From contig OZ246416.1 of assembly GCA_965231095.1 (NCBI GenBank), forward strand, positions 343,277 to 407,276: a stretch of 64,000 nt of DNA, given 5' to 3'. The stretch is from an uncultured Gammaproteobacteria bacterium (GTDB lineage Bacteria > Patescibacteriota > Patescibacteriia > XYB2-FULL-38-15). The notes below the pieces were generated by a model, which was not told the DNA's origin, ran no database searches, and was given only the letters and a program-made list of their open reading frames with translations. The number at the start of each line of letters is the position of its first letter. The first letter of the stretch is position 1. The position numbers and the translations under genes are program-made. This document shows, piece after piece, positions 2,953 through 40,576 of the stretch.

Positions 2953-4365
2953 TTAAATCATCTTTGCTACTTCAAGCATTATCTCTTCGCCAAACCACGG
3001 CGCCATAATTTGAACACCAACCGGTAATTTGTCCGCAACGCCCGCCGGAACGGAAATGGCCGGAAGCCCGGCCACGTTTGCCGAAACCGTGAAGACATCG
3101 GATAAATACATCAATAGCGGGTCGTCAATTTTTTCTCCAATTTTAAATGCTGTGGTCGGCGCGGTCGGCATTACCAAACAATCAACTTCCTTAAAAACTT
3201 TAAGAAAGTCCTCGCGAATCAGCGTCCGCATTTTTTGCGCTTGCAAATAATATGCGTCATAATATCCGGCGGAAAGCGCGTAAGTCCCAAGCATGATCCG
3301 ACGCTTTACCTCATCACCTAAACCTTCGGCCCGAGTTTTTAAATATGTTTCCAATAATGTTTTTGCTTTTTTAGTTTGATAACCATATCGCACACCGTCG
3401 TAGCGCGCCATATTTGCCGAAACCTCAGCCGGCACAATCAAATAATAAACCGCCAGAGCGTATTTGGCATGCGGCAAACTGACATTAATAATTTCCGCGC
3501 CAGATTTTTTTAATTTATCCACTGCGTCGCGCACGCATTTTTCCACGTCTTTATCCATCCCGGCTATAAAATATTCCTTTGGCAAACCAATCCTCAATCC
3601 TTTAATATTTATTTGCTTATTAGTTTTTTTATTTATCTGCTCAACTGTTGTTGAATCCATCTTATCTTTCCCGCGAATTATATCAAAAACAATTTCCGCG
3701 TCTTCCACATTTTTTGTAATCGGTCCGATCTGATCCAAACTTGACGCCATGGCCATCAAACCATAACGGGAAACCGCGCCGTAAGTCGGTTTTAATCCGA
3801 CAACGCCACAAAAGCTGGCTGGCTGGCGAACCGATCCGCCCGTATCAGAACCAAGCGCGTAAATACACATATTGGCCGCGACCGCCGCCGCCGAGCCGCC
3901 CGACGATCCGCCGGCAACGCGAGCCATATCATGCGGATTTTTTGTCACGCCAAAATATGATGTCTCAGTTGACGCGCCCATAGCAAATTCATCCAGATTT
4001 GTTTTTCCCAAAATCACCGCCCCGGCGACGCGCAATTTTTCCACCACCGTCGCGTCGTACGTTGCAACATAATTTTCCAGAATTTTTGAGCCGGCCGTCG
4101 CGCGGATATCTTTTACTAAAATATTATCCTTCAGTGCCATCGGCACACCTTCCAAAATTCCGATCTTTTTCCCTGCGGAAATTTTTTTATCAACCGCTTT
4201 TGCCGCTTCCATCGCCTCACGCTCCGTCATGGTGATAAACGCGTTTAATTTTTTATTGAACTTTTTAATTTGCGCCAAACAAGCTTCAGTTAATTCAACT
4301 GAAGTAAATTTCTTTGCCACAAGTCCGTCATGAGCCTGTTGGATGGTTAGTTCATTTAATTCCAT
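2953..4365 (-). CDS. gatA: Glu-tRNA(Gln)/Asp-tRNA(Asn) amidotransferase subunit A
   Basis: 470 aa; amidase signature GGSSGGSAAAVAA; typical GatA length and flanking gatC. Confidence 0.95.
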   Translation of the reverse strand: MELNELTIQQAHDGLVAKKFTSVELTEACLAQIKKFNKKLNAFITMTEREAMEAAKAVDKKISAGKKIGILEGVPMALKDNILVKDIRATAGSKILENYVATYDATVVEKLRVAGAVILGKTNLDEFAMGASTETSYFGVTKNPHDMARVAGGSSGGSAAAVAANMCIYALGSDTGGSVRQPASFCGVVGLKPTYGAVSRYGLMAMASSLDQIGPITKNVEDAEIVFDIIRGKDKMDSTTVEQINKKTNKQINIKGLRIGLPKEYFIAGMDKDVEKCVRDAVDKLKKSGAEIINVSLPHAKYALAVYYLIVPAEVSANMARYDGVRYGYQTKKAKTLLETYLKTRAEGLGDEVKRRIMLGTYALSAGYYDAYYLQAQKMRTLIREDFLKVFKEVDCLVMPTAPTTAFKIGEKIDDPLLMYLSDVFTVSANVAGLPAISVPAGVADKLPVGVQIMAPWFGEEIMLEVAKMI

Positions 4366-4390
4366 AGAATAATTTTTGTGATTACCGCCC

Positions 4391-4429
4391 TTTTGTCTTT
4401 GCGAGGCGCCTTAGCGCCGAAGCAATCTC
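4391..4429. repeat. Left half of a split palindromic repeat (tttgtctttgcgaggcgccttagcgccgaagcaatctc), partner at 4738-4770
   Basis: Reverse complement matches 4738-4770 and the repeat is near-identical to 4797-4836. Confidence 0.6.
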
Positions 4430-4440
4430 CTCCTTCTCTT

Positions 4441-4731
4441 TTATAAATCATCACTTAAATCCCACCACTCTGAATTATCTTTTTCAATCAAGTCTATCTT
4501 TTTCTTTCTTGAACCACCTTTAATTTGTTTTTCTCTCGCGATGGCTTCTTCTACATTGGTGAAAATTTCGTAGTGAACTAATTTATTTAAATTGTATTTT
4601 GAGGTAAAACCTTTAATTAATTTTTGTTTATGCTGCCATGTTCTATTTGGTAAATTATTGGTGACGCCCGTGTACAAAGTGGTATTCCACTTGTTGGTCA
4701 ATATATAAACGTAATAATATCTTTCTTCCAT
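4441..4731 (-). CDS. GIY-YIG nuclease family protein (UPF0213-like, standalone ~96 aa)
   Basis: YYYVYILTN...LYTGVTNNLPNRTWQHK and REKQIKGGSRKKK motifs typical of small GIY-YIG proteins. Confidence 0.85.
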   Translation of the reverse strand: MEERYYYVYILTNKWNTTLYTGVTNNLPNRTWQHKQKLIKGFTSKYNLNKLVHYEIFTNVEEAIAREKQIKGGSRKKKIDLIEKDNSEWWDLSDDL

Positions 4732-4737
4732 GCTAAT

Positions 4738-4770
4738 GAGATTGCTTCGCTGCGGCTCGCAATGACAAAA
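4738..4770. repeat. Right half of the split palindromic repeat (gagattgcttcgctgcggctcgcaatgacaaaa)
   Basis: Inverted copy of 4391-4429 / 4797-4836 arm; near-identical to 4857-4887. Confidence 0.6.
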
Positions 4771-4796
4771 CGGGGGTTGTCTTTACGAGGACGGTG

Positions 4797-4887
4797 TTTT
4801 TGTCTTTGCGAGGCGCCTTAACGCCGAAGCAATCTCATCAATGTCGTTATCCGTGGGATTGCTTCGCTGCGGCTCGCAATGACAGAA
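4797..4887. repeat. Intact (unoccupied) copy of the same palindromic element: two arms separated by a 20-nt loop
   Basis: Arms 4797-4836 and 4857-4887 are reverse complements (gaagcaatc / gattgcttc core) and match the arms flanking the GIY-YIG gene. Confidence 0.6.
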
Positions 4888-4888
4888 A

Positions 4889-5182
4889 TTACTCAAATAC
4901 CGCTTTCACTTTTACCAAATTATCAATTCTCTCCGGCGCGGCGGCGACTAACTTTTTCATTGTTTCCTCGTCGCATTTTTTTACCTCATCCGGCCGGGCG
5001 ACATTTGTAAAAACTGTCACCTGTGCTGTAGGCACTGCCTTGCTTAAATCAACTTTTTGTAATTCTTTAAAATATCCCAAAACCGCGGACAATTGTCCGC
5101 CAAATTTCTCCTTTTCTTTTTCAGTCAATTCCAGCCGCGCCAAAGTGGCAATGTGTTCAACTTCTTGCTTTGTAAGTTTCAT
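4889..5182 (-). CDS. gatC: Glu-tRNA(Gln) amidotransferase subunit C
   Basis: 97 aa; conserved GatC N-terminus and position upstream of gatA. Confidence 0.9.
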   Translation of the reverse strand: MKLTKQEVEHIATLARLELTEKEKEKFGGQLSAVLGYFKELQKVDLSKAVPTAQVTVFTNVARPDEVKKCDEETMKKLVAAAPERIDNLVKVKAVFE

Positions 5183-5212: not shown

Positions 5213-7291
<2,079 letters not shown>

Positions 7292-7336: not shown

Positions 7337-8218
7337 CTACGGACAAACCGCTTCGGCTCCTTTCACGAGCGAACATTCGCTAAATAAAACATAATCGTAC
7401 AGGCCGGACATCGGCGATTTTCTGGGCATTGTCACTCTGATCGCCTGACGCGCGACGCCGTATTCTCCAGCAGAACTTAAAACAATCCTCGCGGGAATTT
7501 CTATCTGCGGGGGGGCGGCGTTATCCGCTCCCCAAGAGGTAATTATAACATTATTTATATCACAATAAAGTGCCTTGATTCGGAGCCGATAAGACTTGGC
7601 CCCCGAAAAACCGTTATTAATAACCGGACTTGCGAGCGCACTGTATTTAAATTTCTGCTCCCCCGCTTCCGACCATCCGGCCGCCGGATCCCAGGCAACA
7701 TAACTAACTTCAATCATAGAAACCGCCGGCAGGACACAATCCGGCACCCATTCAATTTTAACAGATTCAACTCCCGCGGCAACCGCATTTTCCGGATCAA
7801 AAAGATCTATCTGCATGGAATTATCTTTTTCTACTTTTCCATAAATCTGCGGCTCGCGGTCAATAATTGTTCTCTCCCAAGAAGACCCATTACTCAAATC
7901 TCCGGCCGCCGAAATACATGCCTCCCCTCCCCCTGCCGAGCAAAATCCATTCGCCCCGCACGCTCCGGCTGGACAATTTAGGACTGCGTCTTCTTTTCTT
8001 AATTTATAAATCGCCTGCTCAACTCCCGCTTCGGAGGCAAAATAAGCCACCGTGGAAAAATCAATATTTCTCGCCTGTTTAATTTCATTTAAAATAATCG
8101 CGCCAATTCCAAGCCCAGCCGTCATAATTCCCGCCATGACAAGCAAGGCAAGCAATAAAACATTTCCATGTTCGGTTCCAAAATTTTTAATTTTGAATTG
8201 TAATTTTAAATTTTGCAT
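7337..8218 (-). CDS. Pilus-locus protein with N-terminal TM anchor (PilX-like position), function unknown
   Basis: 293 aa; N-terminal hydrophobic helix; lies at the distal end of the type IV pilus gene cluster. Confidence 0.4.
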   Translation of the reverse strand: MQNLKLQFKIKNFGTEHGNVLLLALLVMAGIMTAGLGIGAIILNEIKQARNIDFSTVAYFASEAGVEQAIYKLRKEDAVLNCPAGACGANGFCSAGGGEACISAAGDLSNGSSWERTIIDREPQIYGKVEKDNSMQIDLFDPENAVAAGVESVKIEWVPDCVLPAVSMIEVSYVAWDPAAGWSEAGEQKFKYSALASPVINNGFSGAKSYRLRIKALYCDINNVIITSWGADNAAPPQIEIPARIVLSSAGEYGVARQAIRVTMPRKSPMSGLYDYVLFSECSLVKGAEAVCP

Positions 8219-17272: not shown

Positions 17273-17345
17273 ATTTTATTAACAGTTAACAATTGACACT
17301 TAACAATTAACTTTATTATAGCACAAAAATAAGCCGCAAACCATT

Positions 17346-18968: not shown

Positions 18969-19128
18969 TAAATCAGCGATTTTATCGAAAAAACCTTGCG
19001 GAGGGCCGCAGCAAAATTTACACTTTCAAAAATATTTCCGCGGCCCGAGCTAGAGCGCGCGGAAAAAAGATATTTTCTCTAATAAAATTTCTTGCGACGC
19101 GTGTTTTTGAGATAAAATCGCTGATTTT
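18969..19128. repeat. Intergenic nested inverted repeats (outer ~18-bp IR aaatcagcgattttatcg / agataaaatcgctgattt; inner gggccgc...gcggccc)
   Basis: Reverse-complement matches read directly; lies in the promoter region of the 17346-18926 gene. Confidence 0.4.
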
Positions 19129-34935: not shown

Positions 34936-34981
34936 AAGTTAGCTTGTAAAATTTGTAAAGTTAATTGTTAACGGTCAACTG

Positions 34982-35707
34982 TTAACTGTTAATTTTATAC
35001 ACCACATCTTTTCTCTCCACCACAATCTCCCATCCCGCTCGCCGCGCCGCGTCATATAATCTTTTATTTGGATTAAAACAAATCGGCCGGTCCACCATTT
35101 TCAAAAATCTAATATCACTATCCGTATCGCCAACACCCACCGATCCGCGCAAAGTCAAATTTTCTTTTTCCACCGCTCGCGCCAAAACTTTTGCTTTATC
35201 GGAAATCAAATCAAGATAAAGCATCTCACTCGTAAATTTTCCCCGAGCGTCCACTTTATAAATCCGGCCATAAACCTTGTCAAACCCGAGCCCCTTGCAA
35301 AATCCTTGCACAATTTCCCGCGGCGAGTGCGATATGGCGAGCAAAAAATATTTTTTCTTTTTTAAATCGCGAACCAAATCTCTGGTAAAACGATAAACGC
35401 GGTTATGATGAAAAGCGATTACTTTTCGCGCCACTTCTAAAAAATCCGCGCGGCGCACACCTTTGATATTTTTATTGTAAGCCAAAACCACTGCGTTGAT
35501 ATATTTTTCATAAATATCGCGGCGATCCAACCATTTTTTGTAAGCCCCGGCGTATGTTTTTCTTAAATTTGCCGGAAACAAACCTTCGGAAATCATCGCC
35601 TCAACCAATTCAATTAGTAAGCTTGATCTAAAAATTGTCCCGTCAATATCAAATATCGCGACTTTCTTTTTCATATTTGAATGGGTTAAAATTTGTTTTG
35701 TAGTCAT
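34982..35707 (-). CDS. HAD-superfamily hydrolase (subfamily IB-like)
   Basis: 241 aa; motif I VAIFDIDGTI and C-terminal GVGDTDSD. Confidence 0.7.
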   Translation of the reverse strand: MTTKQILTHSNMKKKVAIFDIDGTIFRSSLLIELVEAMISEGLFPANLRKTYAGAYKKWLDRRDIYEKYINAVVLAYNKNIKGVRRADFLEVARKVIAFHHNRVYRFTRDLVRDLKKKKYFLLAISHSPREIVQGFCKGLGFDKVYGRIYKVDARGKFTSEMLYLDLISDKAKVLARAVEKENLTLRGSVGVGDTDSDIRFLKMVDRPICFNPNKRLYDAARRAGWEIVVERKDVVYKINS

Positions 35708-37309: not shown

Positions 37310-37768
37310 GTGTGGGGAGGAAAAGGAGCAAGGAAATTGGAGGAACTTCTGACGCCCGTTCTTGGCATCTTGGGGCAACATCAGGGTCTGGGTGCAAAAC
37401 TATTCTGCTTCGTGGAAAAATTCGGCGGAGGTGAAGCTCACTGTGTAGGATCGCTGAATGTGGGTCACGTCCAATGGTATGGCACCAACGGCTTTGCTCT
37501 TCTTCTTTGCGGTTCCCCCGATGGCGCCTCACCGAGTCCGCCACGGCCAATCTCAACATGCGAAATGGGGCCGAAGCAATTTCACAGTGTCTTCCATGGC
37601 TCGACCCTGGCCGTAGCAGAGACTTTCCATGACGGCGATCGTGAGTACGTTGTAGTCTGCAACGAAACTCGGGGCCATCTGGCTCGTCAACGCACGCTCT
37701 TCTTGGCCCTACTCCGCGAGGTTGTGGAGAAGCTAGCGCGCGAAGCGGCAGAAAAAACAGAAGAATAA
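37310..37768 (+). CDS. Hypothetical ~145-aa protein in a GC-rich islet (likely start TTG at ~37337 after AAGGAG, or GTG at 37310)
   Basis: Promoter, RBS and strong terminator on plus strand; opposite-strand ORF is Arg-rich, low complexity. Confidence 0.5.
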   Translation: MWGGKGARKLEELLTPVLGILGQHQGLGAKLFCFVEKFGGGEAHCVGSLNVGHVQWYGTNGFALLLCGSPDGASPSPPRPISTCEMGPKQFHSVFHGSTLAVAETFHDGDREYVVVCNETRGHLARQRTLFLALLREVVEKLAREAAEKTEE

Positions 37769-40529: not shown

Positions 40530-40576
40530 AGAAATTTTTAATTTTAAATTGTAATTTTTTATTTTTTATTTTTAAT

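Follow-up and report, generated by a model that had tools for sequence, protein, structure and literature searches.

A putative Ssn nuclease gene nested in hairpin repeats between gatC and gatA of a probable patescibacterial genome

In the 64-kb stretch of DNA analysed here (the window) the genes gatC and gatA are separated by a block of 523 bp (4366–4888, minus strand), which contains a small gene for a GIY-YIG nuclease and several copies of a hairpin-forming repeat. We consider it probable that this block is an Ssn/SRM module, i.e., a nuclease gene of the Ssn family together with its repeats, inserted at the gatC–gatA junction of a genome that probably belongs to the Patescibacteria.

The system as such has already been described. 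The repeats were reported in 2013 as the CGTC-tagged superfamily of repetitive extragenic palindromes (REPs), which includes the neisserial dRS3 repeat (Di Nocera, De Gregorio, Rocco, BMC Genomics 2013, PMC3733652), and the enzyme was linked to the repeats in 2025 (Chenal et al., Nat Commun 2025, PMC11893778). What seems to go beyond the main text of both papers is a class of repeats that escapes the published SRM pattern, the occurrence in Patescibacteria and on phage contigs, a nested geometry with the repeat heads pointing outward, and a three-state allelic series at an essential operon. In the literature on GIY-YIG proteins with palindromic elements, miniature inverted-repeat transposable elements (MITEs) or REP-associated tyrosine transposases (RAYTs), or on the repeat sequence itself, nothing relevant was found.

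The Ssn family is founded by SsnA of Neisseria meningitidis, a 94-aa single-domain GIY-YIG protein (cd10448). SsnA binds the 28-nt repeat NTS, CGTCATTCCCGCGMAVGCGGGAATCYRG, solely as single-stranded DNA (ssDNA) and solely in one orientation, and it cleaves a few nucleotides upstream of the repeat. Double-stranded DNA (dsDNA) and RNA are not cut, and RNA is not bound. Cutting is controlled by the three bases on the 5' side of the palindrome and is abolished by mutation of Y6, Y17 or E64; for binding, no base matters more than the C that directly follows the palindrome on its 3' side. Homologues number in the thousands, with an Ssn-related motif (SRM) nearby in 71% and on both sides in 42% of them, and 81% of the genomes that contain more than 200 SRMs encode an Ssn homologue. 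Binding and cutting of the cognate repeat have been shown directly for four Ssn enzymes. In Neisseria, SsnA lowers transformation by NTS-bearing DNA. The authors stated that the arrangement 'NTS-ssnA-NTS' resembles an insertion sequence (IS) and raised, but did not test, the hypothesis of a mobile element (PMC11893778).

The GIY-YIG protein and its relation to SsnA

The open reading frame (ORF) at 4441–4731 (minus strand) codes for a single-domain protein of 96 aa. The only Pfam match is GIY-YIG (PF01541, E=1.1e-15, residues 5–78), and NCBIfam gave no match for the protein. With tblastn against plasmid and replicon records a locus of Neisseria gonorrhoeae was found (E=1e-18, 49% identity over 93% of the query), where a 94-aa ORF with Y6, Y17 and E64 is flanked by CGTCATTCCCGCGCAGGCGGGAATC repeats and matches the SsnA of PMC11893778. 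In a pairwise BLASTP comparison with this gonococcal SsnA orthologue (49% identity, E=1e-28) the residues Y9, Y20 and E67 of the window protein align to Y6, Y17 and E64. These catalytic residues, as well as R30, H34 and N86, are invariant among 21 homologues. Both E-values are lower than 1e-10, the limit by which homologues of Neisseria SsnA are defined in PMC11893778. Homologues of the window protein comprise 94–100 aa; among solved structures, the UPF0213 proteins 1zg2 (E=1.7e-6) and 1ywl come closest to it. Neither the window protein nor a near-identical protein of 78 aa had an exact counterpart among recorded proteins.

As judged from homology, catalytic residues and flanking repeats, the window protein is probably a member of the Ssn family with a divergent class of presumed cognate repeats. 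A so far unannotated 'GIY-YIG nuclease family protein' and an odd cluster of palindromes can in this way be tied to an experimentally defined system, with a predicted substrate and a predicted cut position. The pair of enzyme and site may also be of use as a new tool for work with ssDNA.

Repeat units around and beside the gene

The earlier note on this DNA had placed the GIY-YIG ORF between inverted arms, and the alignment bears this out: 4384–4409 and 4752–4777 are 85% complementary over 26 nt, and the inner arms 4418–4429 and 4738–4749 are 100% complementary over 12 nt. The same arms are present a second time without the gene, with 88% identity over 51 nt (4391–4441 vs 4798–4848) and 94% over 34 nt (4737–4770 vs 4854–4887). 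This gene-less copy forms the long imperfect hairpin that had been proposed for it. Folded as RNA it reaches −49.2 kcal/mol on the plus strand (z=−6.5) and −36.5 kcal/mol on the minus strand (z=−4.1), folded as DNA −26.5 kcal/mol (z=−5.5), and none of 200 shuffled sequences folds as stably. The distances given before have to be corrected, since the gene-less copy begins 27 nt further on (4770 to 4797) and not 90 bp, and the unpaired gap between its inner stems measures 16 nt instead of 20 nt. The arm cores gave three matches in the window where 0.04 were expected, and four where 0.58 were expected; an inner-core match at 37570 was discarded as a chance match with one mismatch within coding sequence.

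Each arm turned out to be a structured unit, in which a variable segment separates an outer from an inner core, and not the plain half of a palindrome. In gene orientation (T/C)GTC and ATTGCGAG are followed by a variable mini-hairpin and CGAAGCAAT, and C with a short tail closes the unit. The block contains four complete copies and a truncated one. The complete copies form two inverted pairs with their GTC heads outward; one pair encloses ssn, and the other pair is the gene-less palindrome. Unit 1 lies downstream of ssn (4394–4429, plus strand; TGTC-TTTGCGAG-mini-hairpin GCGCCTTAGCGC-CGAAGCAATC-TC) and unit 2 upstream of it (4738–4767, minus strand; TGTC-ATTGCGAG-CCGCAG-CGAAGCAATC-TC in minus-strand reading). 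The gene-less dimer is made up of unit 3 (4801–4837, plus strand; TGTC-TTTGCGAG-GCGCCTTAACGC-CGAAGCAATC-TCA), a spacer or 'loop' of 16 nt (4838–4853, no strand) and unit 4 (4854–4884, minus strand; TGTC-ATTGCGAG-CCGCAG-CGAAGCAATC-CCA in minus-strand reading), which ends 4 nt from the gatC stop codon. All four units carry the TGTC tag, and their tails are CCA and TCA/TC. The gatC-side unit of each pair has the 6-nt segment CCGCAG and the gatA-side unit a 12-nt GC mini-hairpin with T for A at the first stem position. This heterodimer is consistent in the window and recurs in the related loci L001, L002 and L204; spacers similar to that of the gene-less dimer are present in L001 and L002.

Between the two copies, comparison of the repeats revealed a solitary truncated head of the unit-1 type (TTGTCTTTACGAGG; 4777–4790, plus strand). 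The same arrangement is found in L001, where it reads 'CTCGCAAAGACAAAAACACCGTC(T/C)TCG(C/T)AAAGACAA'. The flank 'aagggcggtaatcac' adjoining the last unit (4376–4390, minus strand) may be the degenerate remnant of a further arm, as similar 'ggcaatcac' remnants stand beside the arrays in L001 and L002; the single dimer of L204 has a conserved 'aagggtggcaatca' behind it.

The stem of a unit opens with ATT and closes with AAT. It is continuous for 5 bp, followed by an internal loop, and the central segment comprises 3 to >40 nt. In 654 units collected from other loci, CGNAG is the most frequent variable segment (CGAAG 90, CGCAG 35, CGTAG 28, CGGAG 15), the alternatives being an 11-nt segment, GAGCGNAGCGA, or GC-rich hairpins of unrelated sequence, whereas the stems are almost invariant. 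To judge from these sequences, the structure of the variable segment is kept while its sequence varies. In the commonest form, CG-N-AG within GCGNAGC, the G and the A are fixed and the middle base is free, a motif that we take to resemble the very stable GNA-triloop mini-hairpins of DNA. The fold of unit 1 as ssDNA (−9.0 kcal/mol) is in register with that of the neisserial NTS.

The determinants of NTS are kept in the repeat class of the window, i.e., GTC just 5' of the palindrome, a stem with ATT...AAT and a C immediately 3'. The genes also agree, both coding for single-domain GIY-YIG proteins of about 95 aa that are 49% identical and have the same catalytic Tyr, Tyr and Glu. In both systems inverted hairpin repeats stand on both sides of the gene in an IS-like repeat–gene–repeat layout, and many gene-less copies exist. 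NTS has a perfect 8-bp stem (ATTCCCGC/GCGGGAAT), whereas the stem formed by the core ATTGCGAG...CGAAGCAAT is interrupted by an internal loop, GAG/CGAA, and bears a variable mini-hairpin. The gene is here mostly situated within a head-outward dimer, whereas in Neisseria, Azospirillum and Sinorhizobium it stands between dimers with their heads inward. Neither a patescibacterial host, which is probable here, nor phage contigs are mentioned in the main text of PMC11893778.

In the CGTC-tagged REPs the tag is CGTC or TGTC, the stem of 8–9 bp opens with AT, the loop comprises 4–5 nt and the tail is CCA; most of them form inverted dimers (PMC3733652). The units described here are alike in the terminal CGTC/TGTC tag, the stem opening and a short tail close to CCA, and they too are mostly intergenic inverted dimers with spacers of 20–100 bp, with Bradyrhizobium and other Alphaproteobacteria as rich hosts. 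They differ in the interrupted stem and in a central segment of 3 to >40 nt.

Several results weigh against equating these repeats and their nuclease with the Ssn system. The published SRM pattern, HGTCWYN(0-2)YYVSBRHN(0-5)WNVSBRGN(0-2)RNCYNB, recognises the neisserial NTS as well as the Azospirillum repeat, yet no arm in the window, with one unrelated match in 64 kb (0.26 expected). Among 80 metagenomic loci that encode 55–67% identical homologues (the close-homologue set), it matches near the gene at one. As the pattern fails, the equivalence of the repeats is argued from architecture and gene association and not from the published definition. Single arms with a short segment fold weakly as ssDNA in the NTS register (−2.7 to −3.5 kcal/mol, no better than shuffled sequences); the stable structure is the hairpin from arm to arm, which might mask the units. 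Outside 4366–4888 no further copy of the repeat was found in the 64-kb window, which thus holds a single cluster and gives no sign of a high copy number in the source genome. Finally, at the loci where the repeat was found by its sequence, the gene was present within 8 kb at only 3 of 120 genomic and at 0 of 120 viral loci, among the matches listed.

The failure of the SRM pattern can also be read the other way round. A unit of the ATTGCGAG class lies within 150 nt of the gene at 65 of the 80 close-homologue loci. Since the pattern misses the ATTGCGAG...CGAAGCAAT class (65/80 vs 1/80 loci), current estimates of the association between Ssn and repeats are probably too low.

Insertion at the gatC–gatA junction and spread of gene and repeats

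The gene order is gatA (2953–4365), the GIY-YIG ORF and gatC (4889–5182), all on the minus strand, with ligA upstream; the block fills the space between the gatA start codon (4365–4363) and the gatC stop codon (4891–4889). The orthologous junctions of close relatives were found by a search with GatC. In L203 and L206–L208 (GatC 80–84% identical) the gatC stop codon TAA is followed by one T and the ATG of gatA, with no insert. In L204 and L205 (GatC 82% identical) a 137-nt spacer contains exactly one gene-less dimer, whose right flank 'aagggtggcaatca' matches the window flank at 4376–4390. In the window, a gene-less dimer, the truncated head and the gene-bearing dimer together make up 523 nt. 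This comparison with relatives lacking the nuclease, which the earlier note had suggested, establishes the block as a true insertion relative to close relatives and yields a three-state allelic series. Unequal recombination between tandem units could have led from the window state to that of L204 or in the opposite direction. Together with the repeats on phage contigs described below, the gatC–gatA series is comparative evidence of insertion, though not of mobility driven by Ssn itself.

The gene had been thought to sit in the loop of a repeated palindrome with an empty copy adjacent. The nesting and the unoccupied neighbour stand, whereas the arms are structured units. In L001 presence and absence of the ORF can be compared almost precisely, the occupied site reading '...cccatcaac[ATG..TAA]agcaaattaatgag' and the gene-less one '...cccacaaacagcaaaaatgag' in a single comparison. 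Insertion of the gene into an existing palindrome loop fits this comparison, and so does the derivation of gene-less dimers from gene-bearing units. In L001 (2600–3540) and L002 (2860–3627), which belong to one contig of a second genome (CAZYOM010000006.1, GCA_964649075.1), two ssn copies flank a gene for an 877-aa protein. They are identical at 280 of 291 nt (96%), and nine of the eleven differences are synonymous. Each copy is enclosed by a dimer and has tandemly arrayed gene-less dimers as well as solitary 'TCGCAAAGACAA' end fragments next to it.

The window protein has more than 8000 relatives in a word-indexed search, most of those listed being 61–76% and the closest up to 90% identical; named relatives include Patescibacteria, Deltaproteobacteria, Moduliflexus and Firestonebacteria. 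In an exhaustive search of representatives 11,313 clusters passed an E-value limit of 1e-3, and 3,907 passed one of 1e-10. At 39 of the 80 close-homologue loci all four core halves stand in order around the ORF, and at about 70 at least part of the set is present. The head-outward geometry is the commonest (30/80), the head-inward one was seen at 7/80. At the homologue loci the left arm ends 5–30 nt before the ATG and the right arm begins 0–20 nt past the stop codon.

Further copies of the palindrome, for which the earlier note had proposed a search and whose absence would have refuted it, clearly exist and are widespread, some enclosing the gene and others lacking it. The exact pattern GTCATTGCGAG-N(3-14)-CGAAGCAATC was found in at least 120 stretches in genome contigs and in at least 120 in viral contigs of IMG/VR. 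Among the matches listed, the records belong to Alpha-, Gamma- and Deltaproteobacteria, Bacteroidia, Chloroflexi, cyanobacteria, Planctomycetota, Patescibacteria, Helicobacter and Sporomusa, and the same 21-base core recurs unchanged from phylum to phylum and on phage contigs. Most units form gene-less inverted dimers; in genomic loci the spacer is at most 60 nt long in 63 of 69 pairs, and the spacer lengths are bimodal, either short or one ORF long. In 126 elements the conservation ends sharply 2 nt outside GTC, position −1 is mostly occupied by C (71%) or T (21%), and neither a target-site duplication nor a target consensus was found. On the 1.76-Mb replicon of Novosphingobium resinovorum (NZ_CP017076.1) 39 places match the Bradyrhizobium-type dimer of the ATTGCGAG-class repeat.

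On the IMG/VR contigs (L209–L328; e.g., L221 with six units, L231, L309 and L313) the ATTGCGAG...CGAAGCAAT units are situated in intergenic gaps. The contigs encode portal, terminase, capsid and ATP-dependent ligase proteins. No ssn homologue was found in the 1.09 Mb of these unit-bearing loci, and tblastn of the window protein against the cultured-phage collection INPHARED gave no match. Near the gene-less units of all 240 loci the recurrent ORF families with most loci were ATP-dependent DNA ligase (the largest), DUF2460, SU10-type adaptor and portal protein; other annotated families were capsid, a second portal protein, large terminase and ABC transporter. Neither a transposase nor another mobilising enzyme was among the Pfam-matched recurrent families, and two further sampled families had no Pfam match.

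In Azospirillum, Sinorhizobium, Planktothrix and Neisseria the repeats on either side of the homologue are specific to each lineage and share a GTCAT–hairpin–ATCC architecture: CCGTCATCCCCGCGAAGGCGGGGATCCAG in Azospirillum lipoferum, CTCATCCCTGTG...CACAGGGATCC in Sinorhizobium meliloti, GTCATTCTGAG...CGAAGAATC in Planktothrix and CCGTCATTCCCGCGCAGGCGGGAATC in N. gonorrhoeae, the last being recognisable as the neisserial dRS3 repeat. On plasmid AZO_p3 of A. lipoferum 4B (L330) the ssn homologue (255506–255799) stands between sufB and sufC with complete repeat dimers on either side, which is another insertion within an operon. On p1 of Planktothrix agardhii (L329) a 65% identical homologue is located between a gene of an MmeI-type restriction-modification system and the DISARM gene drmA, together with arrays of GTCATTCTGAG heads.

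Possible mechanism and alternative explanations

By analogy to SsnA the 96-aa protein would recognise units 1–4 only as single-stranded DNA, as it occurs during replication, DNA uptake or conjugation. Binding would be orientation-specific, and the nick would be placed a few nucleotides 5' of the GTC head. With the heads outward, a dimer would be nicked twice, close outside its two ends and on opposite strands, in agreement with the sharp boundaries of the elements. One outcome may be the restriction of incoming or exposed ssDNA that bears the repeat, as in Neisseria transformation. Another may be an IS- or REPIN-like spread of the unit and its gene-less derivatives, and both outcomes are possible together. 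Patescibacteria are thought to depend on DNA uptake. Given this presumed dependence, a nuclease that restricts ssDNA would be biologically meaningful in these organisms.

The second outcome leads to a tentative proposal, which we regard as possible although rather doubtful: repeat–ssn–repeat could be an autonomous transposable element mobilised by a GIY-YIG ssDNA nuclease, with the gene-less dimers as its MITE- or REPIN-like derivatives, and movement between phyla could take place partly on phages. The polymorphism at gatC–gatA, the sharp ends without target-site duplication, the head-outward geometry and the 96% identical paralogues on one contig fit this proposal. So do the foreign-looking AT-rich ORF (30% GC, compared with 45% in the window and in gatA and 50% in the repeat parts) and the 21-base core shared across phyla and by contigs with portal, terminase and capsid genes. 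If true, it would supply the enzyme that was not found for the CGTC-tagged REPs (PMC3733652), and an ssDNA-based mobile element without an HUH transposase.

A comparable arrangement is known from the REPtrons formed by REPINs and RAYTs. There, too, a nuclease gene is placed between inverted REP units, gene-less inverted dimers give long hairpins, target-site duplications are absent, and the hairpin is recognised as ssDNA, as is predicted here. The enzyme of the window is, however, a hydrolytic GIY-YIG nuclease and not an HUH/Y1 transposase that forms a covalent intermediate, and no Y1 transposase recurs near the gene-less dimers among the ORF families of the 240 loci. Moreover, RAYT repeats are lineage-specific and vertically inherited, whereas the core found here does not differ between phyla and is present on phage contigs as well.

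We considered three alternatives to an Ssn/SRM module. The first is classical homing, which the earlier note had in mind when it pointed to GIY-YIG as a homing-endonuclease domain. The enzyme would make a dsDNA break in the loop of a gene-less palindrome, repair from an occupied copy would write the ORF in, and the palindromes would be pre-existing host or selfish targets. The window protein shares the catalytic domain with I-TevI and the Seg proteins, and the presence or absence of a small gene at a defined site is a common feature. The ORF fills the loop almost exactly, its presence and absence in L001 are near-precise, two copies on one contig are 96% identical, and homing endonucleases are matched weakly in PHROG (E about 1e-3). 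Nevertheless, homing is unlikely. The window protein, with its one Pfam domain in 96 aa, lacks the C-terminal DNA-binding domain of these endonucleases; its closest characterised relatives, which are 49% identical, cut ssDNA only and never dsDNA, and they cut outside the repeat and not in the loop (PMC11893778), so that the cut predicted here does not fall on the insertion point of the gene. In addition, the arms would offer merely about 35 bp of homology per side for repair, gene-less dimers are vastly more numerous than occupied ones among the matches listed, and the clean indel is a single comparison. The label of a classical GIY-YIG homing endonuclease was accordingly given up.

Second, the repeats could be ordinary CGTC-type REPs that are mobilised by another, unlinked enzyme, the GIY-YIG gene being a frequent passenger or neighbour. 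Most dimers indeed have no ssn nearby, among the matches listed, and neither an associated enzyme nor a dedicated transposase has been found for the CGTC REPs (PMC3733652). Against this, no transposase was seen among the Pfam-matched recurrent families near the gene-less units, and the four cores surround the gene in 39 of 80 loci, far above chance by our own rough estimate of about 3e-6 per locus. As four Ssn enzymes bind and cut their cognate repeats directly (PMC11893778), we hold the passenger role to be highly improbable.

Third, the arms could act at the RNA level, as a processing, stabilising or translational-control hairpin in the gatCAB transcript with the nuclease gene as incidental cargo; this is scarcely credible although the hairpins fold strongly as RNA, many CGTC-type REPs are argued to be transcribed (PMC3733652) and the block lies within the operon on the same strand as gatC and gatA, because the better fold is that of the plus strand, antisense to the operon (−49.2 vs −36.5 kcal/mol), the exact 21-base conservation across phyla, symmetric on both strands, points to protein recognition of DNA, no Rfam family was matched, and SsnA does not bind RNA (PMC11893778).

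The remaining observations concern other possible roles of the block and other sites of the window. As no promoter- or terminator-like site was found within 4366–4888, the block is presumably transcribed along with the gatC/gatA operon, and a terminator or promoter role was ruled out. The Rfam search gave no family at gathering thresholds or at E up to 10, which excludes a described structured RNA or ribozyme. An integron attC site was also dismissed, since the ends lack the RYYYAAC/GTTRRRY cores that we take to be typical of such sites and no integrase is present in the annotated 6.3 kb of L001 and 3.6 kb of L002.

A strong Shine-Dalgarno-like sequence, AAGGAGG, is situated directly behind the ssn stop codon (4429–4435, minus strand). 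Its distance of 63 nt makes it too remote to serve the gatA start, and no comparable motif was seen ahead of ssn or gatA. Elsewhere in the window, a 38-nt inverted pair rich in TTAAC/GTTAAC (ATTAACAGTTAACAATTGACACTTAACAATTAAC...) spans 17.6 kb (17278–17315 and 34956–34993, 92% complementary), and a 25-nt inverted repeat of 92% complementarity has 108 nt between its arms (18970–18994 and 19103–19127). The AT-rich 27-nt motif AAAATTTTTAATTTTGAATTGTAATTT, which may be an intergenic signal, is best represented by the pair 8180–8206 and 40531–40557 (93% identical) and occurs in weaker form at 7286, 8200, 15121, 21536 and 40552.

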